Of a DNA stretch of 64,000 nt, positions 1,396 through 57,593 are shown one piece after another. A program made the translations under genes and the position numbers. The stretch lies in NCBI GenBank assembly GCA_964547345.1, contig CAZJMX010000006.1, positions 41,187-105,186 on the forward strand. Direction: 5' to 3'. Within the stretch, counting starts at the first letter, position 1, and every line of letters begins with the position of its first letter. Source of the stretch: an uncultured Smithella sp. GTDB taxonomy: Bacteria > Desulfobacterota > Syntrophia > Syntrophales > Smithellaceae. The notes below the pieces were generated by a model. The model made no database searches. It was not told where the DNA came from and was given only the letters and a program-made list of their open reading frames with translations.

Positions 1396-1595
1396 CAACG
1401 ACAAATAAAAAGACGTGCGCGGTTCAAGTGGCAGAGAGCTCCAGTAACATCAACAAATACGGTAGCTTCGGGCCATGCCACCAAGTTAAACTTCATTCAC
1501 CTTATACATTCGGTCCGACGACGCAAAATGACTAAATAGCCTACGACACGAAAATGAGTTCTAAACTATTTTAAAAAAGAAGAGGAGGACAGAAA

Positions 1596-2849
1596 ATGAA
1601 GCATTGGAAGGGGATAATTTTCACGCTGGTCAGTTGTTTGGTGATGACGTGGGCTGTGACGGCCACTGCCGACGATATTTTGATCGGCTTTTCGGGCCCC
1701 ATGAGCGGCCCTGCGGCTGAATACGGTCAGGATTGCTTCTATGGCATTGAAATGGCTGTGAATGAAATCAATGCTGCCGGCGGCATTATGGTAAAAGGTA
1801 AAAAATACAACTTTAAACTGGAAAAGTTAGACGATCGCAATGATCCGACAACGGCCGTAAACAACGCACGCCGCCTGCAGGCATCCAAAGCTATCGCCAT
1901 TTACAACGCCGTCTATACCACCATCGCAGCCATAGCGAAAATCAATGAAGAAAAAGGCAATGAATTCCTGCTGATGGCATACACCAGCACGCCTAAAGTC
2001 GTTCAGTTGGGAAACAAGCTCTTAATCGGCACGACGGCGCCTCCCTTTACTGTTTACATTCAGCAATTCACGGATCTGGCTCTGAAGAAAGGCTGGAAAA
2101 AAGTGGCCATGGTCACAACCACCGGCGCCTACGGTGAAGAATGGCGCAAAGCCTTCAGTGAATACTGGGTCAGCGTCGGCGGCTCCATTACGATCGACAA
2201 ACCGGCCAATTATTACACAGAAACGGACTTCTCGGCACCGCTCACGGCGGCACTTGCCACCAAACCGGATGCGATGCTCATCGGCGGCCCTTCGGCCACC
2301 ACCGCTCTGGTTATTGAACAGGCGCGAGGCATGGGCTTCAAAGGCGGCTTCATCGCCATCGACCAGGCCAAAATCGATTACATGGGCAATCTTCTTCGCG
2401 GCTATAAACTGATGAATAATACTATCGGTGTTGCCTCCCCCGTCACCGTCAAAACCCCGGTTACGGACTCTTTTGAAAAGAAATACAAGGCCATCTACAA
2501 GCGCATCATCACGTCTGAATGCCAGAGAAATTATGGCGCAACCTTTGCGCTGGCAGCGGCCATTTCGGCGGCAGGCACAACGACGGACGTGCGGGCCATC
2601 CGCGCGGCGTTTTCCAAAGGTCTGCCGATTCTCGGCGACAAGATTCCCACCGAAATCTTCGGCATCAACCCCAATGGCAGACTGTTGATCAACGGCTCCG
2701 TCCAAATGATTGAAAACGCAAAACTGTTACCACCGGAACAGTATTTCTGGTGGATCAAGTCCGACAAGGAATGGGATAACATCAAGAAGATTTCCAAGAG
2801 CCAGGCGAACATGTTTCGCTTCCAGCCTAAAATTGCGGATGTCGAATAG
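1596..2849 (+). CDS. ABC transporter substrate-binding protein, branched-chain amino acid (LivJ/K-like) family
   Basis: Signal peptide, IGFSGPMSGPAAEYG and AVNEINAAGGI motifs; GAGGAGG RBS. Confidence 0.88.
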   Translation: MKHWKGIIFTLVSCLVMTWAVTATADDILIGFSGPMSGPAAEYGQDCFYGIEMAVNEINAAGGIMVKGKKYNFKLEKLDDRNDPTTAVNNARRLQASKAIAIYNAVYTTIAAIAKINEEKGNEFLLMAYTSTPKVVQLGNKLLIGTTAPPFTVYIQQFTDLALKKGWKKVAMVTTTGAYGEEWRKAFSEYWVSVGGSITIDKPANYYTETDFSAPLTAALATKPDAMLIGGPSATTALVIEQARGMGFKGGFIAIDQAKIDYMGNLLRGYKLMNNTIGVASPVTVKTPVTDSFEKKYKAIYKRIITSECQRNYGATFALAAAISAAGTTTDVRAIRAAFSKGLPILGDKIPTEIFGINPNGRLLINGSVQMIENAKLLPPEQYFWWIKSDKEWDNIKKISKSQANMFRFQPKIADVE

Positions 2850-46356: not shown

Positions 46357-48624
46357 TCACTGATATTTAAATTCAAGCTGGCCTGCCTTAAACCCAACCG
46401 TGACGCTGCCGCCCTTTTTCAGTCTGCCGAAGAGCAGCTCTTCGGCAAGCGCATCTTTGATCTCCGTTTGAATGAGCTTGGCCAGCGGCCTTGCGCCGAA
46501 TTTATCATCGTACCCTTTTTCGGCCAGCCATCCTCTTGCGGCATCGGTCACGTCCAGTTTCACTTTTTTCCCGCCTAGCTGCGAGCCCAGATCATTGATA
46601 AACTTATCGACGACTTTTTTCATGACGGCGGGGGTAAGCGGGTTGAAGGTGATGATCGCGTCAAGCCGATTGCGAAATTCAGGATTAAAGAGTTTTTTGA
46701 TCGCCTCGCCGCCCTTCGATCTTGCATCGGCTTTTCTGTCACCGAATCCGATCGTCCCCCTTTCCATCTCCTTTGCACCGGCATTGGAAGTCATGATGAG
46801 GATGACATTCCTGAAGTCAGCCTTCTTTCCATTGTTGTCCGTCAGCGTTGAGTAGTCCATCACTTGAAGCAATATGCTGAAAATATCGGGATGCGCTTTT
46901 TCGATCTCGTCGAGCAACAGAACCGAGTATGGGTGCTTCCTGACCGCATCGGTCAGCAGGCCGCCCTGATCAAAGCCGACATAACCGGGAGGCGCACCAA
47001 TCAACCTCGCCACAGCATGCTTTTCCATATATTCGCTCATATCGAAACGCGTGAAATTTACACCGAGCACGCATGCCATCTGCTTTGCGACCTCGGTCTT
47101 GCCGACACCCGTGGGCCCCGCAAAAAGGAAGGAGCCAATCGGCCGCTCCGGTACACCCAAACCCGCACGCGATCTCTTGATGGCGGAGACCAGCGAATGG
47201 ATGGCGCTGTCCTGACCAAAGACCACAGCTTTAATTTCCGTCTCCAGATCTCTCAATTTGTCCGTGTCGGACGCGGAGATGGTGAGTGAGGGTATCCGGG
47301 CGATATGCGCGACAATGGCCTCAATCTCCTTGACGCCGACCACGGGTTTGCTCTTGCCGCAAACAAGCAGCTTTCGCGTTGCACCTGCTTCATCAATCAC
47401 GTCAATGGCCTTGTCCGGCATAAACTTGTCATTGACATATTTTGCGGAAAGTTCGGCGGCAGCCTTGATGGCGGCATCCGTGTAACGGACACCATGGAAA
47501 TCTTCGTAATATGAACGCAGGCCTTTTAATATATCAATTGTTTCCTCTATGCTGGGCTCGTGAAGTTCTATCTTCTGGAACCGCCTTGAAAGAGCGCGGT
47601 CTTTCTCAAAATAGTTTTTGAATTCCTCATACGTGCTGGCGCCGATGCAGCGAAGCCAGCCGGAATTGAGCACCGGTTTCAAGATATTCGAGGCATCCAT
47701 CGAACCGCCGCTGGTCGCTCCCGCGCCGACGATGGTATGAATCTCATCGATAAAGAGGATGACGCCGGGAATCTTTTCGAGTTCCCTGATGGTGGCCTTC
47801 AGGCGTGCCTCAAAATCACCGCGGTATTTAGTGCCCGCAAGCAGCGCTCCCATATCAAGCGAATAAAGGGTCGTGTCCTTAAGCGGTTCAGGGATAGATC
47901 CCTTGTGGATATTGAGCGCAAGACCCTCTACCAGCGCGGTCTTTCCCACGCCCGGTTCACCGACGAACACGATATTGTTTTTCCGGCGCCGGCTGAGCAC
48001 CTGTATGGTGCGGAGAAGCTCGGCTTCGCGGCCCACCAGCGGGTCGATCTCTCCTGCCGCTGCCTTTTCGATCAGATTGATGGTGTAGAGCTTCAAGGGA
48101 TCTTTAGACACGGGCCGCGTGGGCTCGGTCTGGCCGGTGCCGGGTTCCCGCATTGGGTCTTCAAGCGGCAATCCGTCCTTCTCGTCCCCACTGAAACCTG
48201 CTCCGCCGTGGGATATGTAATTGAGCACATCAAGGCGCGAGATGCCCTCCTCCTCAAGAAAATGCGCGGCAAAGGAATCGGGTTCACCATAAAGCGCCGC
48301 CAGAAGATCGCCTGCCTCGACCTCGGCCTTTTCGGCAGACTGGACATGTATGATCGCCTGCTGAATCACCCTTTGGAATCCCAGCGCAGGGACAGGGTTG
48401 GAACGCTTGCCCGGAGGAAGTACAGGGATGTTCTTGGCGAAGAAGGCCTCGATATTGTTTTTAATTCTAGCGACATCGCCGCCGCAGCCTGTGACGATCT
48501 CGATACCCAGTTCGTCATGGATGAGCGCAAACAGGATATGCTCGGCAGTCAGATATTCATGCCGACGTTTTTTTGCATCTTGGATCACTGCATCGAGCGC
48601 CAAGCTCAGTTCTTTATTGATCAT
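46357..48624 (-). CDS. clpA: ATP-dependent Clp protease ATP-binding subunit
   Basis: Two AAA+ modules (GEPGVGKT, GPTGVGKT), no ClpB middle domain; IGF loop; ATGA overlap with clpS. Confidence 0.96.
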   Translation of the reverse strand: MINKELSLALDAVIQDAKKRRHEYLTAEHILFALIHDELGIEIVTGCGGDVARIKNNIEAFFAKNIPVLPPGKRSNPVPALGFQRVIQQAIIHVQSAEKAEVEAGDLLAALYGEPDSFAAHFLEEEGISRLDVLNYISHGGAGFSGDEKDGLPLEDPMREPGTGQTEPTRPVSKDPLKLYTINLIEKAAAGEIDPLVGREAELLRTIQVLSRRRKNNIVFVGEPGVGKTALVEGLALNIHKGSIPEPLKDTTLYSLDMGALLAGTKYRGDFEARLKATIRELEKIPGVILFIDEIHTIVGAGATSGGSMDASNILKPVLNSGWLRCIGASTYEEFKNYFEKDRALSRRFQKIELHEPSIEETIDILKGLRSYYEDFHGVRYTDAAIKAAAELSAKYVNDKFMPDKAIDVIDEAGATRKLLVCGKSKPVVGVKEIEAIVAHIARIPSLTISASDTDKLRDLETEIKAVVFGQDSAIHSLVSAIKRSRAGLGVPERPIGSFLFAGPTGVGKTEVAKQMACVLGVNFTRFDMSEYMEKHAVARLIGAPPGYVGFDQGGLLTDAVRKHPYSVLLLDEIEKAHPDIFSILLQVMDYSTLTDNNGKKADFRNVILIMTSNAGAKEMERGTIGFGDRKADARSKGGEAIKKLFNPEFRNRLDAIITFNPLTPAVMKKVVDKFINDLGSQLGGKKVKLDVTDAARGWLAEKGYDDKFGARPLAKLIQTEIKDALAEELLFGRLKKGGSVTVGFKAGQLEFKYQ

Positions 48625-48947
48625 TCCCTCTCCATTGTACATTTCAGCGGAAATTGATTTTGGGCCGCCATTTCATGCACCGCTATGATTTTTGTCTCGG
48701 CAATCTCCCGCGTATATAAGCCACAAAGGCCCGCCCCCTTTTTATGCACACTCAGCATAATCTGAGTCGCCTCGGCAGGCGACTTGTGAAAAACCGTCTC
48801 CAGCACGTGGATGACGAATTCCATGGTAGTATAGTCATCATTGAGCAGGATGACGCGATACCGGGAAGGCTCTTTCGCCTCCTGCCGCTCTTTTTCGGCA
48901 ACATTTTCATCTGATTTAATCTTCTCTTCGTTCATGACCATCCCCAA
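48621..48947 (-). CDS. clpS: Clp protease adaptor
   Basis: YRVILLNDDYTTMEFV and FPLKCTME motifs. Confidence 0.96.
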   Translation of the reverse strand: MGMVMNEEKIKSDENVAEKERQEAKEPSRYRVILLNDDYTTMEFVIHVLETVFHKSPAEATQIMLSVHKKGAGLCGLYTREIAETKIIAVHEMAAQNQFPLKCTMERE

Positions 48948-49100
48948 ACGTTAATCTGATTGTAGTTTGCACGGAAATATTCCACCGGTCAATAGCAAAG
49001 GCAGGAGATGGGGGAACTGCGGAATGGCAGAATTATTTTTTGTAGCCCTTACCGAATCCATCATATTGAAAATCTATAGACAATTGATATTTTTTCGAGA

Positions 49101-49646
49101 TCAATCTTCGTATGGCCCTAAAAATCTCTCCCCGTTGAAATGAATTAAATGTGTGGGTGCATCCGCCACCCAAACCTCTGTTTCCCAAGAGATATCGTTC
49201 AGATATTTCAGCATGGCGCGCCGATCCATAAAAGCGGTCACAAATACCAGACCGGCGCTTGAACCCGCAAACAAATCTTTTAGCTCTGCCCTTCTTTTGG
49301 GATTCACCGGCCCATGACTGGTCACCGCTTCAATGAGAAGCAGCCAGTTTTTCTTTGCATGATAGACCACAACGTCCGGCATCTTGCCGTGCTCTTCTAT
49401 CTTTACACCCAGAGAAGACAATGTAACTGCATCATAGTAAGCCCATTTCAATTGCGTATCGCCCACGTAAATCATATGGCCGCCAGGGGTGTATAGAGCG
49501 CAAAAATCTTTGATGACTTTCTTTATGAGAATATTTAGCCGATCGGGAGAGAACCTGATTTTCTGGCCCTCCGCAAACTGCACGGGCACTCTGGGCATCA
49601 CCCGTTTATTTTCGTCTCTTTTCTTCACAGTTTTGAATGCGGGCAT
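49101..49646 (-). CDS. stand-alone C-terminal catalytic domain of a BsuBI/PstI-family restriction endonuclease (truncated gene or remnant)
   Basis: YVGDT, HGKMPDVV, LIEAVTSHGP, WETEVW and HFNGERFLGPY motifs; N-terminal region absent; GAGGA RBS before ATG 49646. Confidence 0.75.
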   Translation of the reverse strand: MPAFKTVKKRDENKRVMPRVPVQFAEGQKIRFSPDRLNILIKKVIKDFCALYTPGGHMIYVGDTQLKWAYYDAVTLSSLGVKIEEHGKMPDVVVYHAKKNWLLLIEAVTSHGPVNPKRRAELKDLFAGSSAGLVFVTAFMDRRAMLKYLNDISWETEVWVADAPTHLIHFNGERFLGPYED

Positions 49647-49822
49647 CTGTATTTCCTCAGATTTGCTTTCATGGGCACAAAATGCTTCTTCTATTTTCAC
49701 TTCGTTTCACTTTTTATTTATTGTCTTTGCCATCACTGTTCGATTCCGATAAGGTTAGCTTGAAAAAATTGCTGATGTGATTAATCTCTTGTTTCCTTTG
49801 AATATAGATTTTAAAATAAATT

Positions 49823-50539
49823 TCAACTCATCTTGACCCAAAGGTGGCACAAGTCGATTATGTCAAGGCCGCCCTTTCTCAGATGTTGTGATTTGAAAGT
49901 ACTGATCCCTGTGGCCGAATCGTTGCTAAGCAGTTGCAGCATGTCAGTTTCGCTCCAGACCGAATCAGGTTCAACCACTAGGTCCCGAATCCAGATGTTT
50001 ACTTGGCCAAGCCAGTGATTAAAGGAGCGATCCTGAATATATGCGATCATTGCTGCAAAATTATGCGCAGCGCCGTGATGGCCGAATTTGAATCGCTGGA
50101 TACCACCTGTCGTACCGGGTTCTGTAGTAACGTATTCTCGCTCGTCTCGGTCTTTTTCTTTCGGCGTTGGGAGGCGCTTGCACTCGATAGGGAATAGCGC
50201 GTCAAATTGTGAGTACCATTTATTTTCAATGATAAGCATAGCGGCACGTGGTTTCACGGTAAGATCTATTTTTCTGTTGCCAAGTGTTTCATCGCTCGTT
50301 TCTGTTCGGAACTGGACATGGCTCCAAGCGTTCGAGTAGTAGGCGGCAGTATTGAGGTAATCGCATAGATATTCTGTCAATTTCGTTTCCGTATGTTCTG
50401 CTGGTCGGTCAGGATGGTCGCGCCATAGGGGAAGTTGCTGGGCAATAAAGCCTACGAGTTCCAGCTTCGCTGTGGAAGGCAGTTGAATATCCGGATCGAG
50501 CTTGCCTGATTGAATGATGTTGAAACTGTCTGTCAGCAT
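49823..50539 (-). CDS. hypothetical protein, putative PD-(D/E)xK nuclease
   Basis: E..LT, KIDL...IECKRL and GGIQRFK motifs; starts 11 bp after the methyltransferase stop. Confidence 0.6.
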   Translation of the reverse strand: MLTDSFNIIQSGKLDPDIQLPSTAKLELVGFIAQQLPLWRDHPDRPAEHTETKLTEYLCDYLNTAAYYSNAWSHVQFRTETSDETLGNRKIDLTVKPRAAMLIIENKWYSQFDALFPIECKRLPTPKEKDRDEREYVTTEPGTTGGIQRFKFGHHGAAHNFAAMIAYIQDRSFNHWLGQVNIWIRDLVVEPDSVWSETDMLQLLSNDSATGISTFKSQHLRKGGLDIIDLCHLWVKMS

Positions 50540-50550
50540 CCTTGTTAATC

Positions 50551-53400
50551 CTAAAACCCTTGTTCGGCCAAATCGGCAAGTGTCTCATCCGCATCCCGGA
50601 GAGCGATAGAGCGAAGCCAGTATCTCAAACGGTTGGGCTTGAGAAGGTACATGCAGGCTCCGTCATAAAGTCGGGCAATACGAGTTACATTGAGACCTGC
50701 ATTGCGTTCTTCGCGCAACAGAACGTCGAGTTTCCCTTTAAGTTCATCCGCTCCGGTCCAGTCCACCTTTCCCCTACCAAAGACATAAGGCTGACAAATC
50801 ACACCCGGCCAATCATATTCATCTAAAGCACGTAGTTTATTCTTTTTGTAAACGCTGTTGATCCTGGTTGTGAAAACGTCGTTGAACGCGGGCAGAGCGG
50901 CAAGTCCGGCCTCTTTCATGGCAAGAGAGTCCTCGCCGAGGCGAATAATATCACGATAATAATCTACTATATCGGAGGCGATGATTTGTTCTAAGGAAGC
51001 CATAGAAAGCGAACCGCTCTCTGGAAATGGAAGCGAGAGAATATCAATTTCTGATAATGTAGTAGCCTTCTGTGTAAAGAGTCTAACGCTGATAGCTGCA
51101 GCAAATGCTTGAAGTGGAATTTTATCTTTCTTGAGCCATGCTTCTATTTCTGCGAGCAAAGAAACGTCACTCGGCTTTGAGCCGATGATACCAACGACTT
51201 TATTCTTGTAAGTGAGATAGCCGGAAAGCCAAGCCGCAAAATCCATATCCATGTGCTCACGAATCAGCAGCATTGGCGATGAAAAGCGTCTTGGTGTATA
51301 AGAGGTCTTGAATAGAGTGTCATTTACCTTGGTTATTGCGCTCTTGTCAATACCGTTGGCTGTGATGGCTTCGGAAGGAAGAAGTGGCTTTCCCGTCAGA
51401 TGCGGAGCTGGTGATCTCTTCCCAGATTTTCCAACGATAAATCCCTCTCCATAGTCCCATTTCATATCGGCGGCAAACTGCCCAAGTGTTCTGTATTTCC
51501 TTAGCCGATCCACGAACCCACTCACGCGTCCTCCACCGAGCAGGTTACATCGCCACACAGCATCATTGCTCAGGACCAAAGACCGAGGCAACCAGTGCAT
51601 ATCGTAATAATCAATGTCAAAGCCCTGCTCCGCATCGACGCGGCCACTGCGGCGGAATGTCGCGTGGAGAATTCGGCGATTCGGAGGCGGTACTCGAGAT
51701 TCGGCAACGACGATAACAACCTTGGTATCTGCTCCACCCTTCTGGAAAAGACCACGGACTGAGATGAAATCAAGGATTTCCCGGACATCCCAATGCTCCA
51801 TGAATTTGCGCCGAAAACTCAGCGACTGCTGGTTGTAAAGAAAATTATACTGTTGGAGCATGGAAAGCACACCACCGGTAGCCAACATCTCCATGGATTC
51901 GTGAAGAAAGAGATAGGCAATCTGCTTGTCTGGCAGAGCGCCGTATTCCTTCTGGTATTGGTCATAGGCCCTTTGCGCACCATCAGTGTCCAGTTTCGAG
52001 GCAAAAGGTGGATTGCCAACGATTACGCCGACCGGCTCCTTAATCATTTTCTTTTCGCGAGTTTCGAAGAAGCAACCTTTGTGGATGGTGGTTCCCTTTA
52101 AGGATCGGAAGAGTTTCACGCTGGATCGAATCTCCTCTGGTTTCAGCGCATCGCAGAGCGCGAGGCAAAGGCTGAACGCAGCGAGTTCGACTGCATCTTC
52201 CTCGACATCCACACCCCGGAGCCTTTTTGTAAGCAATTTTTTAAGGATTGTTTGGGGTGGCGGTGCCCAGTCGTTTCGAGAACGCCAGTGGAGCACCAGT
52301 CGTTTATAGGCTTCAACGAGAAAAATGCCAGATCCACAAGCCGGGTCCAGAATGACTTCGTCATTCTTTTCCAGTCGATCCAGCCTCTCCCAACTTAAGA
52401 CTTCGCCAATCATTAGGCGGACGACAAAATGTGGCGTATAGACCGCCGTTTCCGTGTCATTAACGAAAAGCTGGTAGATGTGGCTGATAAATTCCACCGG
52501 CAAGTCGGCAAAGGAATATCGCTGCCAAAGCGTACGTTGACCGTTAGGTTCCTGCCGTCCTTCCACAAGACAGGCATAATGGACAAGTTGTCCGTTACCG
52601 CAAAGCCTGTCGCGATCCTCGTCGTCAAGGACGAACACATGCCCGTTGAATCGTTCTTCCAGGTGATCGAGCAAAGCGACAAGAGCCTGACCATCCGCAA
52701 GCACTTGGAAGAAATTGTCCGCTCCAGGCAAAAAACGGCTAAAAAAGCCGGGCTCAAAAACTTTTCGCTTTTCGAGATATGCTATAAGCACCGAAAGAAT
52801 GAGCAAGCGTCGCCGAAGTTTTTTGGGGAGGAAGCCTTTATCGTTAAGTTCCTGGTGCAATTCCTGAACTGCGGTAATAAGTGTCTTTTGTGCTGATTGC
52901 CTGCTGGATAGGAGTTGTTTGCATACTGCCGGATCATCCCAGAGCGTTCCGGTGCGGAGCCGTTCGGCATTCCACCAGGGTTCTGCGGCGATTTGGGAAG
53001 AGAGTTTCAGCGTGCGAAAGGGTTTGCAAACGATTTCGCCACCACTTTCGAAGTCAGGCCGGTGTGCACAACGGAAAAGCTGCACTAAACCGCTTGTAAA
53101 ACGATACACAAGCGGCACACCACCCCAACTCCAAAGTCGTTGGTGCAATTCACCGAAATTACAGCCCTGTGCTGGCCCATCCGAGTGATAGAGGAATGCC
53201 TGCGCTATAGGTGTTTTGCCATCACGAGGTGCTTCGAAGAATACAGCATCCGCCAGATAATGCTCGGCCTTTTCCATTATGGCTACTTCTTCGGCGGGTC
53301 GATTGGTCGGGATGTAACCCTGAACAGGCACAAGGCCGTCCACAACATCATGGCTGCCGGAAACATTGAAATCTATTAGCCACTTTCCAGGATTATCCAT
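50551..53400 (-). CDS. large N6-adenine DNA methyltransferase (type IIG/Eco57I-like architecture)
   Basis: ISHIYQLF, YTPHFVV, motif I ILDPACGSGIFL and motif IV VGNPPF; long N- and C-terminal extensions. Confidence 0.88.
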   Translation of the reverse strand: MDNPGKWLIDFNVSGSHDVVDGLVPVQGYIPTNRPAEEVAIMEKAEHYLADAVFFEAPRDGKTPIAQAFLYHSDGPAQGCNFGELHQRLWSWGGVPLVYRFTSGLVQLFRCAHRPDFESGGEIVCKPFRTLKLSSQIAAEPWWNAERLRTGTLWDDPAVCKQLLSSRQSAQKTLITAVQELHQELNDKGFLPKKLRRRLLILSVLIAYLEKRKVFEPGFFSRFLPGADNFFQVLADGQALVALLDHLEERFNGHVFVLDDEDRDRLCGNGQLVHYACLVEGRQEPNGQRTLWQRYSFADLPVEFISHIYQLFVNDTETAVYTPHFVVRLMIGEVLSWERLDRLEKNDEVILDPACGSGIFLVEAYKRLVLHWRSRNDWAPPPQTILKKLLTKRLRGVDVEEDAVELAAFSLCLALCDALKPEEIRSSVKLFRSLKGTTIHKGCFFETREKKMIKEPVGVIVGNPPFASKLDTDGAQRAYDQYQKEYGALPDKQIAYLFLHESMEMLATGGVLSMLQQYNFLYNQQSLSFRRKFMEHWDVREILDFISVRGLFQKGGADTKVVIVVAESRVPPPNRRILHATFRRSGRVDAEQGFDIDYYDMHWLPRSLVLSNDAVWRCNLLGGGRVSGFVDRLRKYRTLGQFAADMKWDYGEGFIVGKSGKRSPAPHLTGKPLLPSEAITANGIDKSAITKVNDTLFKTSYTPRRFSSPMLLIREHMDMDFAAWLSGYLTYKNKVVGIIGSKPSDVSLLAEIEAWLKKDKIPLQAFAAAISVRLFTQKATTLSEIDILSLPFPESGSLSMASLEQIIASDIVDYYRDIIRLGEDSLAMKEAGLAALPAFNDVFTTRINSVYKKNKLRALDEYDWPGVICQPYVFGRGKVDWTGADELKGKLDVLLREERNAGLNVTRIARLYDGACMYLLKPNRLRYWLRSIALRDADETLADLAEQGF

Positions 53401-53579
53401 CGGTAAACTCTCATTTGATCGGATGTTAATAAATAATTATATCAAAAAAATCTTCCGCTATCTTTTGCGGAACGATTTGTGAGAAACCTCCCCTGTTTTT
53501 GATGAGACAAGTTATTTGCAAGCCAGCAACACTTCCCCATCCAAGCTGGTTATTCAAAGAAGTGATGTCCGAATTTACA

Positions 53580-53738
53580 TCACTGCGTCAGCAGTTTTTC
53601 CAGCTCGATAAATATCTTGCTCAAATTCTCCGGCTGCGTGCCGCCGGCTTGGGCCATGTCGGGGCGGCCGCCGCCTTTGCCGCCGACCAGTGGGGCCAGT
53701 TCCTTGATGATGTTGCCGGCATGGAATTTCGAGGCCAG
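53580..53738 (-). repeat. second, diverged copy of the alaS 3' end (52 codons plus stop)
   Basis: Direct repeat of 54473-54631 at offset 893; 50-bp identical core 53638-53687 = 54531-54580; 44/52 aa identical. Confidence 0.95.
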
Positions 53739-53957
53739 TTAACGCTCTCTTCCTCTTCTAACAATTTCAACGATTTCTTTTGTCGTAACATTTGCCTTAA
53801 TGGATCTAACATTCAACGGGGAAGAGACTATCTTTTCCGGAACCAAGGCAAAAGTTCGTCCATCCTTTCTTTGAATTAAAACCTTACCCGTGGTTTCAGC
53901 CTGTTCAAGCACGGCAGCAAGCTTTTGACGGGCTTCTGAATATGTGTAAACTTGCAT
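53739..53957 (-). CDS. Phd/YefM-type antitoxin
   Basis: YTYSEARQKLAAVLEQA...VLIQRKDG; GGAGG RBS at the end of the toxin gene. Confidence 0.8.
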   Translation of the reverse strand: MQVYTYSEARQKLAAVLEQAETTGKVLIQRKDGRTFALVPEKIVSSPLNVRSIKANVTTKEIVEIVRRGRER

Positions 53958-53958
53958 A

Positions 53959-54351
53959 TTAAACCTCCAAGGTTTCGATGTTTAGCAGCTGCGCGGCTAC
54001 TTTGAGCTTACGATCCAATGTCAAAAGAGGCGCATTATGTCTGATCGCACAATCCACAAAATATGCATCGTAAGCATACAGGTTACTTTGTTTAGATATT
54101 TTTAAAGCGTGGACAAAGTCTGTCTTGATATACCTAAGCGGTATACTATCATAAATGATTAAGCCTTCTTGGGCTGCTTCCAGTGTGAGTCTGTTTTGTT
54201 TAAACATGGCAGAGAAAGCATTTCCGACTTCCCACGGAGTTGACCCAGGCGCTATCAATGTATTACCAGTTGTTAATTCAATAATCCTATTGCGCTCAGG
54301 TTCATCCACAATAACCGCAAGCAGAGCAGAGGTATCAATGACAATATCCAT
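53959..54351 (-). CDS. PIN-domain (VapC-like) toxin
   Basis: VIDTSA, WEV, YAYDAY and LLTLD provide the acidic tetrad. Confidence 0.9.
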   Translation of the reverse strand: MDIVIDTSALLAVIVDEPERNRIIELTTGNTLIAPGSTPWEVGNAFSAMFKQNRLTLEAAQEGLIIYDSIPLRYIKTDFVHALKISKQSNLYAYDAYFVDCAIRHNAPLLTLDRKLKVAAQLLNIETLEV

Positions 54352-54380
54352 TCACATCCCCCAAACATGTATTCGTGACA

Positions 54381-54408
54381 ATTGTACAACAATAGCTGCT
54401 TTTGTCAA
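54381..54408 (-). promoter_or_regulatory. TA promoter with a TGTACA palindrome over the -10 box
   Basis: Minus strand TTGACA-16-TACAAT; ttgtacaa at 54382-54389. Confidence 0.6.
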
Positions 54409-54472
54409 GTTTCAGCGATAGCCAGATTCGGCAACAACCTCGAACCCCGGAACAACAAAACCATTTTATTTG

Positions 54473-57115
54473 TCACTTCGTCAGTATCTTTTCCAGTGCA
54501 GGAAAGATATTCGCCAGATTTTCCGGCTGGGTGCCGCCGGCTTGGGCCATGTCGGGGCGGCCGCCGCCTTTGCCGCCGACTATCGGGGCCAGTTCCTTGA
54601 TGATGTTTCCGGCGTGGAATTTATTGGCAAGATCCTTGGTGACCATACACAAGAGCAAGGCTTTATCGTCGGCTTTGCTGCCCAGCAGAATAACGCCGGA
54701 GGCCATTTTGTCGCGCAGCTTGTCGCCGAAGTCGCGCAGCGTTTTGGCATCGGCAATGCTCACTTCGGCGGCCAGTACTTTAACGCCTGCGATTTCTTTT
54801 ATCTGACTCATCAGGTCGCCGGAATCCTTGGCGGCAAGTTTTCCCTTAAGCGCTTCAATTTCTCTTTCCAGCTCACGGGTCTGCTTTAAAAGCTTATCGG
54901 CGCGGTCATACACTTCAAAGTGCCCGGCTTTGAACAATCCCGCCGTGCGCCTGAGTTCTTCCTCGGCCTTCTGAACGTGGAGAAGTGCTTCCTTCCCGGT
55001 GACGGCCTCCAGTCGCCGCACGCCCGCAGCAATCGCCGATTCATGCATAATTTTAAGCAGGCCGATGTCGCCCGTGCGCTCCACATGCGTGCCGCCGCAA
55101 AGCTCCATGCTCATATCGCCCATTTTCACAATGCGCACGGTCGCGCCGTATTTTTCGTCAAAGACCGCCGTCGCACCGGTTTTGAGAGCGTCTTCAAGTG
55201 AACAGACATCCGTCTGAACCGGCAGGTTCTTGCGGATGATGTCGTTTGCGATGGTTTCGACGCGCGCGAGTTCTTCATCCGTGATTTTGGAAAAATGGGT
55301 AAAGTCGAAACGCAGCCGCTCGGCGTTAACAAGCGAGCCGGATTGTTTGATATGGTCGCCCAGAACGGCTTTAAGCGCCGCCTGCAACAGATGCGTGCCG
55401 GAATGATTGGCGGCGATGGCGCGGCGTCTTTCCAGATCAACCACCAGACGGGCGCTCACGCCGATCTTCACGTCACCTGTCCGGACAACGCCTTTATGGA
55501 CGATAAATTTCTCAATGGGTTTTTTCGTATCTTCAACGATGAAATGGAAACCCTGCCCCTCCAGGTAGCCTGTATCGCCTGCCTGACCGCCGGATTCTCC
55601 GTAAAAGGGCGTGGTATCGAGGACGATTTCGGCCTTTTGGCCGGCGTGCGCCGCATCTGCCGGCTTTCCATCCACAAATATCGCCGTGACTTGCGCCTCG
55701 TCTTTCCTGACGGCCTCGTATCCGCAAAACTCGCTGACAACGCCGGCGCTTGAAACCTTGAGATAGCATTCCGCCACGGCTTCTTCTCCGCTGCCTTTCC
55801 ACGCGCCGCGAGCGCGTTCGCGCTGGCGTTCCATCTCGGCCTCGAAGCCTTCCGTGTCGAGCGTGATCTTATCTTTTTTGACGATGTCCGCCGTCAGATC
55901 CACGGGAAAACCAAACGTGTCGTAGAGTTTAAAAATCACTGCGCCAGGCAGAACCGACTGCCCCGCATTTGTAAGCGCCGCTGTTTCTTCCTGCAAAATG
56001 CGCAGCCCGGCATCGAGTGTTTCCATGAAACGCTGTTCTTCGTTGAGGATCACCTTGGTGATATAAGAAGCCTTGTCCGCGAGATCCGGATAGGTGTACT
56101 TCATCATGTCGATGATCACCATGGCCGCTTCGTTCAAAAACGGTTTGTTGATACCGAGCATTTTTCCGTGGCGCGCGGCGCGGCGCAGGATGCGTCTGAG
56201 CACATAACCGCGGCCTTCGTTTGCGGGCATAATCCCGTCGCCGATTAAAAAAGTAACGGCGCGGCTGTGGTCGGCAATCACCCGGATGGAGACATCGTTG
56301 TCTGCGTTTTTGCCGTAGGATTTACCTGAAAATTTTTCAACAAAACGGATAATCGGCGCAAAAAGGTCGGTATCGTAATTGCTTTTGACGCCCTGAATGA
56401 CGGCGGTGAGGCGCTCCAGCCCCATGCCCGTGTCGATGCTGGGTTTGGCAAGCGGCGTGAGTTTGCCGGTTTCGTCGCGGTCATACTGCGTGAAGACGTT
56501 GTTCCAGATTTCCAGATGGCGGTCGCAGTCGCAATAGACGTCGCATTCGGGACGGCCGCAGCCTGTGCCTTCCCCCTGATCGAAGAGAATTTCAGAGCAG
56601 GGACCGCAGGGGCCGGTTTCGCCCATCATCCAGAAATTGCTTTTTTCGCCCATGCGGACAATGCGGTCCGCGGAGACTTTCATTTTCTCGTGCCAGATTT
56701 TAAAGGCTTCGTCGTCGTTTTCAAAAATCGTCACCCAGAGTTTTTCTTTAGGGAGCTTCACGACATCGATCAGATATTCCCAGGCCCAGGTAATAGCCTC
56801 TTCCTTGAAATAATCGCCGAAGGAGAAATTGCCCAGCATTTCAAAAAAGGTGTGGTGGCGCGCGGTGTAGCCGACGTTTTCCAGGTCGTTGTGCTTGCCG
56901 CCGGCGCGGGCGCATTTCTGACAGGTGGCCGCTTTGGTGTAGCCGCGGTTTTCCAGGCCTAAAAACGCGTTTTTAAACTGCACCATGCCCGCGTTGGTAA
57001 ATAGCAGCGTGGGATCGTCCTTGGGGATGAGCGATGAACTCGTCACCCGCGTGTGCCCTTTGCTTTCAAAAAATTTTAAAAAACTTTCCCGTATCGCATC
57101 ACCCGTCGTAACCAT
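54473..57115 (-). CDS. alaS: alanine--tRNA ligase
   Basis: LLFTNAGMVQFK, HHTFFEMLGNFSFG, DTGMGLER, editing HSGTH and [19 protein letters not shown] motifs. Confidence 0.98.
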   Translation of the reverse strand: MVTTGDAIRESFLKFFESKGHTRVTSSSLIPKDDPTLLFTNAGMVQFKNAFLGLENRGYTKAATCQKCARAGGKHNDLENVGYTARHHTFFEMLGNFSFGDYFKEEAITWAWEYLIDVVKLPKEKLWVTIFENDDEAFKIWHEKMKVSADRIVRMGEKSNFWMMGETGPCGPCSEILFDQGEGTGCGRPECDVYCDCDRHLEIWNNVFTQYDRDETGKLTPLAKPSIDTGMGLERLTAVIQGVKSNYDTDLFAPIIRFVEKFSGKSYGKNADNDVSIRVIADHSRAVTFLIGDGIMPANEGRGYVLRRILRRAARHGKMLGINKPFLNEAAMVIIDMMKYTYPDLADKASYITKVILNEEQRFMETLDAGLRILQEETAALTNAGQSVLPGAVIFKLYDTFGFPVDLTADIVKKDKITLDTEGFEAEMERQRERARGAWKGSGEEAVAECYLKVSSAGVVSEFCGYEAVRKDEAQVTAIFVDGKPADAAHAGQKAEIVLDTTPFYGESGGQAGDTGYLEGQGFHFIVEDTKKPIEKFIVHKGVVRTGDVKIGVSARLVVDLERRRAIAANHSGTHLLQAALKAVLGDHIKQSGSLVNAERLRFDFTHFSKITDEELARVETIANDIIRKNLPVQTDVCSLEDALKTGATAVFDEKYGATVRIVKMGDMSMELCGGTHVERTGDIGLLKIMHESAIAAGVRRLEAVTGKEALLHVQKAEEELRRTAGLFKAGHFEVYDRADKLLKQTRELEREIEALKGKLAAKDSGDLMSQIKEIAGVKVLAAEVSIADAKTLRDFGDKLRDKMASGVILLGSKADDKALLLCMVTKDLANKFHAGNIIKELAPIVGGKGGGRPDMAQAGGTQPENLANIFPALEKILTK

Positions 57116-57593
57116 CAACGTCTTCCTCCACTTTTTTTCCCAATTCTTTTAAGATCAGGCCCGGTGGGAATCCTCGTCCCATCAGGCTTTGAAAAATTCT
57201 CTGCTTTTCTTTCACATCCAGGAGAGGCGCTTTCTTTTTGGCCGCCTTCTTTCTGATCAGGATTTTGATTGCTGCTTCTTCCGTTAATTCCTGACGCGCC
57301 GACGCAACGGCGTCGTCAATCAAACGGGCCTGTATGCCTTTTTCCTGCAAACCGGCCGAAATTTTACGATTGCCCCAGAGTTTGTTAACCGCCAGATTGC
57401 GCGCCCATTGCAAGGCAAAAGACGCGTCATTGAGATACTTCAAATCGTGGAGTTTTTCCAGTGCTTCTTTAATAACAACTGCGGGAAAACCTTTTTCCCG
57501 CAGTTTCTTTTCCAACTCTTTTTCCGAATGCGGCCGCAGCGATAAAAGCCGGTAGGCTTTTTGCTTCGCTGCCGCCAGATCTAATACTTTCAC
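57099..57593 (-). CDS. recX: regulatory protein RecX
   Basis: LLSLRPHSEKEL, YLNDASFA and LMGRGF motifs; directly follows recA. Confidence 0.88.
   Translation of the reverse strand: MKVLDLAAAKQKAYRLLSLRPHSEKELEKKLREKGFPAVVIKEALEKLHDLKYLNDASFALQWARNLAVNKLWGNRKISAGLQEKGIQARLIDDAVASARQELTEEAAIKILIRKKAAKKKAPLLDVKEKQRIFQSLMGRGFPPGLILKELGKKVEEDVDGYDG

Follow-up and report, generated by a model that had tools for sequence, protein, structure and literature searches.

In the genome of an uncultured Smithella sp., a stretch of 64,000 nt (contig CAZJMX010000006.1 of assembly GCA_964547345.1, positions 41,187 to 105,186 of the forward strand; hereafter, the window) contains the 3′ end of the essential gene alaS twice, as direct repeats with an identical core that flank an inserted PIN–Phd toxin–antitoxin module. 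The alaS gene is intact and uses the first of the two ends (end A), and the second (end B) lies behind the module. The arrangement looks like a recombinase-independent insertion scar at a gene-exchange hotspot and not like a new mobile system or element. We regard it as fairly probable that DNA of another Smithella recombined homologously within alaS and was joined illegitimately at its far end, leaving a partial duplication of the gene end. The original prediction, made from the letters of the window, had proposed an integrase-free cassette array anchored on alaS. Its description of the locus was reproduced by recomputation (a 159-bp repeat with a spacing of 893, no indels, a 50-bp core and 44 of 52 identical residues), and the order of alaS, PIN/Phd, end B, methyltransferase and nuclease genes and clpS agrees with the open reading frames (ORFs) and domains. 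The array itself was not borne out, as no genome with more than two alaS ends was found. Below, G000 is the window's genome, and other G- and L-numbers denote the genomes and loci compared with it.

Anatomy and history of the two alaS ends

A repeat search showed that the final 159 nt of alaS are present again downstream (Table 1), with 84% identity and a start-to-start spacing of 893. The two ends stay in register over their whole length, with 133 of 159 bases identical and zero gaps, and the stop lies at the equivalent codon in both. The longest identical run is the core of 50 nt at repeat positions 52-101. On the 3′ side, the similarity stops at the stop codon, and the sequences beyond the two stops are unrelated; on the 5′ side, it stops at the base after the Phd stop (53739/53738). 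In the whole genome (4.05 Mb, 87 contigs) there are just two copies of the alaS end, with E-values of 1.3e-78 and 1.1e-43, so chance is excluded as the source of the repeat. A third end was sought between the gene for a 199-aa nuclease-domain protein and clpS (48900-49130), but the local alignment score of 21 equals the background.

The distribution of differences between the ends is informative about their past. All 26 of them lie outside the 50-nt core, for which the neutral chance is (109/159)^26, or ~5e-5, and the comparison of A with B gave a nonsynonymous divergence (dN) of 0.116 and a synonymous divergence (dS) of 0.466, with dN/dS of 0.25 (Nei-Gojobori). Because the differences avoid the core and dN/dS is 0.25, A and B must both once have been functional alleles, as the original prediction had supposed for end B. 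The two ends diverged as functional alaS ends in different lineages and were then brought together. The identity of the core itself is largely a matter of conservation, because alaS genes of other Smithella match it at 40-49 of 50 positions.

These data also bear on a local origin of the repeat. A tandem duplication of the alaS end, with the module inserted between the copies and the spare copy left to diverge, would be the simplest route to a direct repeat and would fit the short spacing of 893 bp. We consider it very unlikely, since a neutral spare at 16% divergence would lose its frame, its conserved residues and its untouched core (the same ~5e-5), and dN/dS of 0.25 implies that both copies diverged while functional. 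Moreover, the sequences past the two stops would not be expected to be unrelated, and relatives with two near-identical ends and no cargo are absent.

Several comparisons concern which of the two ends is native. At the protein level, end B shares 92-94% identity with the alaS ends of G018, G021, and G019, and the first bases past its stop resemble the sequence downstream of alaS in G019, G021, and G013. End A continues into ~90 nt found elsewhere only in G006. Probably, end B and the sequence behind it are resident, and the spacer, the module and at least the 3′ half of end A came in from outside. When the left, core and right parts were compared separately with 38 other ends, the signals on which end is native were mixed. 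End B would at present be an untranslated relic of the alaS 3′ end without function. A terminator-like hairpin with a T run lies 108 nt past its stop and is probably the original alaS terminator.

Two observations at the start of end B should be mentioned. Phd and the relic share one reading frame in G000 as well as in G006, with a TAA stop alone between them (window 53738-53739; L034:2042-2055), and the 33-nt length difference between the relics of these genomes is also in frame. The chance of this is ~1 in 9, and the placement is probably a coincidence. The possibility that the beginning of end B pairs with the spacer behind end A into an attC-like hairpin was also considered by eye; however, the inverted match is 7 nt in G000 and 8 nt in G006 and pairs different positions, and it was discarded as chance.

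The reality of the arrangement depends on the assembly. A chimera of two co-occurring strains that differ after alaS could be suspected, as in many Smithella bins the contigs break where alaS ends, or more than one contig carries such an end (G041, G112, G142, G301), and the Logan contigs of four holder runs break at the 50-nt core, so the two sides are not linked there. Against it, an 861-nt Logan contig spans both new junctions (53700-54560) without mismatches in all four runs (X1-X4, which belong to one study and are possibly the source samples, not independent studies), and the depth of the junction contig is 0.85-1.3x that of the flanks. The same order is seen on one contig of G006, a separate metagenome-assembled genome (MAG) from another record, and the core is probably shorter than the reads. 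A chimera is therefore extremely improbable. Taken alone, the Logan junction contigs fit either the tandem order or an intact alaS together with a circle; the contigs of the MAG and of G006 show the tandem order. No joint that skips the 893 bp is listed among the Logan contigs of X1-X4, which is uninformative either way because rare variants are dropped and the contigs break at the core.

The PIN–Phd module and its integron-cassette relatives

By domains and layout, the pair between the ends is a predicted type II toxin–antitoxin pair. The genes are small, adjacent and co-oriented, with one base between them and the toxin first, a point that the original prediction did not note. The toxin–antitoxin segment has a G+C content of 40-42%, compared to 53-57% for alaS. 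At least 80 relatives of PIN were found in species genomes (68-82% identity) and, among the matches listed, at least 80 relatives of Phd in metagenome contigs (69-86% identity); in both cases, they are mostly from Desulfobacterales. The survey of the family was made on the 160 loci of the 80 PIN and 80 Phd matches listed (L078-L157, L174-L253), in which the nearest relatives have identities of 68-87%. Both genes were found in 145 of them, always in the order PIN then Phd (145/145). This toxin-first order is the reverse of the usual VapBC order.

The borders of the family copies are those of gene cassettes. Many copies start with G/TTCTACC (the slash marks the boundary), ~17 nt before the promoter, and GTTCTA occurs within 130 nt of PIN in 62 of the 134 loci with enough upstream sequence. 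At the other side, the Phd stop of the relatives overlaps TAGAAC, the start of an imperfect palindrome ending in GTT. Several family loci are flanked by direct repeats. L111 has an intI homologue (43% identity over 311 aa) whose start is separated from that of the cassette by ~235 nt, which makes this the first cassette. To judge from these relatives, the module belongs to an integron-cassette family of Desulfobacterales. Like integron cassettes, the family is bounded by G/TT… and by the imperfect palindrome that begins at the Phd stop, and the module has a predicted promoter of its own. Unlike them, the module of the window lies outside the integron of its genome and is flanked by alaS sequence, and it has lost its attC, alaS-like sequence following directly after the Phd stop.

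The 121-nt spacer between end A and the toxin gene is composite, the cassette leader starting after the first ~60 nt. Its resemblance to the cassette family is limited to positions ~80-117, and positions 2-89 match G006 only, at 90% identity. A consensus scan located a promoter-like site, TTGACA-16-TACAAT, at 54408..54381, with 11 of 12 positions matching. Among 47 Smithella genomes, this Phd is present in G000 and G006 only. A scan of genome contigs with a 34-nt pattern for closer copies of the module gave G006 only, and protein scans gave none above 82% for PIN or, among the matches listed, above 86% for Phd.

G000 does possess an integron, on another contig, C35 (L173:1-2841). Its integrase gene (1501..2841) matches TIGR02249 with 404.5 bits against a cut-off of 265, and its first cassette ends in a canonical attC (…CCTAAC … GTTGGGC). 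Divergent small ORFs run off the start of C35.

The original prediction had also tied the toxin–antitoxin pair to alaS, as cargo that could select against the loss of the unit. This link does not hold for the family, since alaS sequence was found beside the module relatives in 0 of 160 loci. As for selection against loss, G006 has already lost most of its toxin gene.

Displaced alaS ends and the region after alaS in Smithella

In total, 47 Smithella genomes were searched, of which 41 had an alaS end. A second, displaced end was found in four of the 41: G000, G006, G007, and G010. In G006, the unit is at the same place, with a spacer 88% identical, PIN cut to its last ~65 nt and an intact Phd (94% identical). 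The alaS-like sequence begins there right after the Phd stop but 33 nt further upstream than in G000, and the duplicated end is 159-190 nt long in these two genomes. The synonymous divergence between G000 and G006 is 0.26 for Phd and 1.00 for alaS; therefore, the PIN–Phd unit was shared after the split of the two species and is younger than it. In the complete genome G007, the displaced end has decayed, with a stop and a frameshift, and is orthologous to end B of G006; its left edge falls within the core and is preceded by a YhcG gene that breaks off at ~residue 118 of 368. In G010, alaS carries a foreign-type end, and the native-type end, from mid-core on and with the native terminator (as in G022), is on another contig behind a multi-gene island with fragments of helicase and nuclease genes. 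The joint is at the start codon of a DUF1848 gene, which follows the nuclease gene in G044 and G054. A related island without duplication is located between the alaS stop and the terminator in G016.

Relatives with duplicated alaS ends and differing cargo, for which the original prediction had suggested a search, thus exist, but more than two ends were never found, either among the 47 Smithella genomes or among 339 genomes of the order. Cargo and joint position vary among three of the four holders, and two joints cut cargo genes short. The proposal that crossovers are confined to the conserved segment is not supported by the left edges of the displaced ends. In G000 and G006 this edge coincides with the Phd stop and precedes the core by ~50-85 nt, and in G007 and G010 it is found at two points inside the core. 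Cargo in the form of units is not supported either, because the cut in YhcG of G007 and the joint at the DUF1848 start codon of G010 look like accidental joints and not like borders of cassettes. Outside the genus, no in-contig double end was detected among the 339 genomes of the order, the five with more than one match having been examined.

Multiple matches of other kinds were set aside: outside the genus, a frameshift at one place (G124), contig ends (G112, G301), a 40%-identical second gene (G242) and three co-binned contigs 76-83% alike over their whole length (G142); in the genus, two alaS contigs (G041) and a 44%-identical second gene (G043). Also in the genus, a 56%-identical fragment lies at the start of a contig in G046 (C92). 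In G142, from a sister genus, contigs C16, C21, and C94 (L166-L168) each contain an alaS end, a methyltransferase, a nuclease and a DUF1848 gene; this bin is a mix of three strains or species, and the gene order is old.

The space after alaS was compared in ~40 Smithella genomes by ORF clustering (L033-L076; window 48621-54472). The far flank is conserved in most of them (an HpaB-like gene, a VTT-domain gene and others), and G022 presents an empty site, with alaS directly beside the conserved flank. G000 and G007 differ in having clpS-clpA as the far flank in place of the HpaB-like and VTT genes. The contents include PstI-like and Eco57I-like restriction-modification genes, YafQ-like, HipA, and Fic modules, a Schlafen-type helicase, MazG and metabolic genes. 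The region is a hotspot for toxin–antitoxin, restriction-modification and other defence-like genes in Smithella. It resembles the minimal mobile elements of Neisseria, in which alternative gene sets are swapped between core genes by homologous recombination in the flanks: varied genes follow alaS, conserved genes lie beyond and an empty site exists. However, a flank-to-flank swap leaves no duplicated gene end, and the four relics show that a single homologous flank served for some of the acquisitions.

Just after alaS, within the first ~60 nt past the stop (L071, L056, L046, L072, L076), a hairpin (…CATTCCCGAC…GATCGGGAATCC…) is conserved in G004, G005, G014, and G044; in G018, the first arm alone is left. 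The hairpin could either be the terminator of alaS or represent a small repeat element.

No recombinase was found among the five window proteins and the 49 alaS-downstream proteins tested from ~40 Smithella loci, and no transposase among the latter; no tyrosine recombinase lies near alaS among the 150 of 317 genus-wide matches listed (complete genomes G005, G007, and G015 included). The term integrase-free of the original prediction thus applies to the unit, its surroundings and the corresponding proteins of the relatives.

This result is important for a comparison with elements that integrate into the 3′ end of a protein gene and bring a replacement for it. Examples are e14 and phage 21 at icd of E. 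coli, SGI1 at trmE and the dusA islands. As with these elements, the alaS end now used was probably brought in by the incomer, the older end was pushed away from the gene, and the two copies have diverged around an identical core. A remnant of a classical integrative element (a prophage, an integrative mobilisable element or an integrative and conjugative element), with the alaS 3′ end as its attB and with the integrase and almost all other parts later deleted, would explain this. The methyltransferase/nuclease block could then be a second remnant, and toxin–antitoxin modules are common survivors of decayed elements. The elements in question, however, encode an integrase and use one fixed crossover, and at alaS no integrase was found in the searches given above, the joints vary by genome and the cargo is a 734-bp toxin–antitoxin module or a truncated gene. 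As, in addition, no intact version was found, in-contig double ends are missing outside the genus among the 339 genomes of the order, the module is an integron cassette by its relatives and not part of a phage or conjugative gene set, and a literature search turned up no report of alaS as an attachment site (the one paper found to name alaS employs it as a qPCR control), we consider this origin unlikely.

A dedicated site-specific cassette system, in which units of an alaS end and its cargo enter and leave at the conserved core through a recombinase encoded elsewhere (for example, the integron integrase of the genome or a Xer-like enzyme), was weighed in the same way and is judged improbable. 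It would account for the 50-nt core identical in both ends, for the displaced ends of G007 and G010 starting in the core ~10 nt apart and for the variation of cargo by genome, and the integron-cassette nature of the module and the presence of an integrase with a canonical attC beside it on C35 fit it as well. Nevertheless, integron integrases cut at a GTT/AAC triplet, and the core contains neither GTT nor AAC; its conservation in other species means that the identity needs no special cause. The module has no attC, and none of its 160 surveyed relatives adjoins alaS. The system is disfavoured because there are three joint positions, one of them (G000/G006) well upstream of the core, because genes are cut at two of the joints, because no recombinase was found nearby among the proteins tested and because there are never more than two ends in the genomes searched.

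Beyond end B, the variable block of the window holds the genes listed in Table 1. Homologues of the 199-aa nuclease-domain protein are encoded 3′ of alaS in G010, G016, G041, G042, G044, G048, G054, G058, and G007. Proteins of 180-201 aa with the BsuBI/PstI nuclease C-terminal domain alone recur after alaS (window 49101-49700; L048:5915-6445; L055). These short forms lack the N-terminal helix-turn-helix domain of the 322-aa forms, and they adjoin an Eco57I-type methyltransferase or a Schlafen-type helicase with an S24 peptidase domain.

Table 1. Features of the alaS region, in window coordinates, in order from alaS to clpS
Feature	Positions	Strand	Basis or remark
alaS, 881 aa, intact	54473..57118	-	ORF; open frames of relatives 880-896 aa, 82-91% identity
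End A, alaS 3′ end in use, including stop	54473..54631	-	Repeat comparison
50-nt core of end A, encoding 16 residues	54531..54580	-	Identical to 53638-53687
Spacer, 121 nt	54352..54472	-	Cassette leader in later part; promoter-like site inside
PIN-domain toxin gene (predicted), 130 aa	53959..54351	-	PF01850, 1.1e-13; single copy in genome
Phd/YefM-type antitoxin gene (predicted), 72 aa, 3′ of toxin gene	53739..53957	-	PF02604, 3.2e-9; TIGR01552, 1.2e-5
End B, displaced alaS 3′ end, own stop, open frame	53580..53738	-	DHHA1 (Pfam) match 1.2e-11 alone
50-nt core of end B	53638..53687	-	
Terminator-like hairpin and T run	53453..53472	-	Consensus scan only
Eco57I/N6-type methyltransferase, 949 aa	50551..53400	-	
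238-aa protein without family	49823..50539	-	
199-aa protein, BsuBI/PstI nuclease C-terminal domain only	49101..49700	-	
clpS, after variable block 49101..53400	48621..48947	-	

A proposed one-sided homologous route and its weak points

The mechanism that we regard as fairly probable is the following. Donor DNA from another Smithella lineage would have carried the 3′ part of alaS, ~60 nt of the sequence downstream of it and the PIN–Phd module, the latter derived from the integron-cassette family of Desulfobacterales. On one side, this DNA would have recombined homologously within the resident alaS. On the other side, the incoming DNA would have been joined illegitimately, directly behind the Phd stop, with a point in the resident alaS ~36 nt upstream of the present end B. 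The incoming, complete alaS end (end A) would have kept the essential gene intact, and the resident end with its terminator would have been displaced 893 bp downstream as the unused relic that is end B. Either of two routes would lead to this outcome: a linear fragment entered by homology-facilitated illegitimate recombination, or a fragment was first circularised and then entered by a single crossover in alaS. The two would differ only in whether the part of end B left of the core (B-left) is derived from the donor.

A laboratory precedent is available in PMC3240628. In that paper, homology-facilitated illegitimate recombination is defined, with microhomology of 3-10 bp, and 56 of 60 E. coli clones are described in which the homologous lacZ end was instead duplicated over 109-950 bp. 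Those duplications are reported there to have arisen by single-crossover entry of a recircularised, partly degraded molecule. As in those cases, one side is homologous (here alaS) and the other probably an illegitimate joint, the incoming DNA needs no recombinase of its own, the foreign segment is ~1 kb and the insert has a duplicate of the homologous end beside it; the borders of the cargo at alaS are arbitrary. The differences are that those cases concern plasmids or transforming DNA in the laboratory, whereas the alaS scar is natural, involves species ~15-20% diverged and is found in an uncultured syntroph; furthermore, the gene whose end is duplicated here is essential and could not be disrupted.

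A number of observations weigh against the one-sided homologous route. In G007 and G010, the joints fall in the core and are no more than ~10 nt apart, which is tighter than random in a target of 200 nt, and this clustering could mark a preferred site. The joint of G000 and G006 falls exactly at the cassette/attC border at the Phd stop, as a random break rarely would. Short microhomology at the joints is possible (TAA(A)G in G006 and AAxGC in G010), but it was picked out by eye and is ambiguous. Another debatable issue is the divergence of the flanking parts. Between G000 and G006, B-left and the part of end A right of the core (A-right) are 25-27% diverged, although co-transfer with the module (7-15%) predicts otherwise. 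To reconcile this, a later allele replacement is needed for A-right and neutral drift for B-left; the divergence of B-left matches neutral drift at the synonymous rate of Phd (pS 0.22). The direction of transfer is one that we infer, because no donor or pre-insertion allele closer than ~85% was found, no relative being closer than that in the body of alaS. The negative result for tyrosine recombinases in the genus applies to 150 of 317 matches, and we know of no natural competence in Smithella.

The clustering of joints is also the starting point for another idea, closer to that of the original prediction. The alaS 3′ end might serve as a recombinase-free landing pad, where units of a gene end with its cargo, set free as circles when the two ends recombine or acquired as linear DNA, re-insert by RecA at the core in the alaS of any relative. 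The clustered joints of G007 and G010, and the module that is younger than the species sharing it, would be its traces. We hold this to be improbable. If true, it would represent a cassette system working on host recombination alone, in which toxin–antitoxin cargo would penalise loss.

If the one-sided homologous route is correct, then the alaS region of Smithella provides a natural example of an essential, conserved gene acting as a single homologous anchor by which foreign DNA enters without an integrase. An integron cassette would, moreover, have left its integron and crossed orders, from Desulfobacterales to Syntrophales. The duplicated gene end would be the tell-tale scar of such events, one for which systematic searches could be made to measure one-sided recombination in uncultured bacteria.

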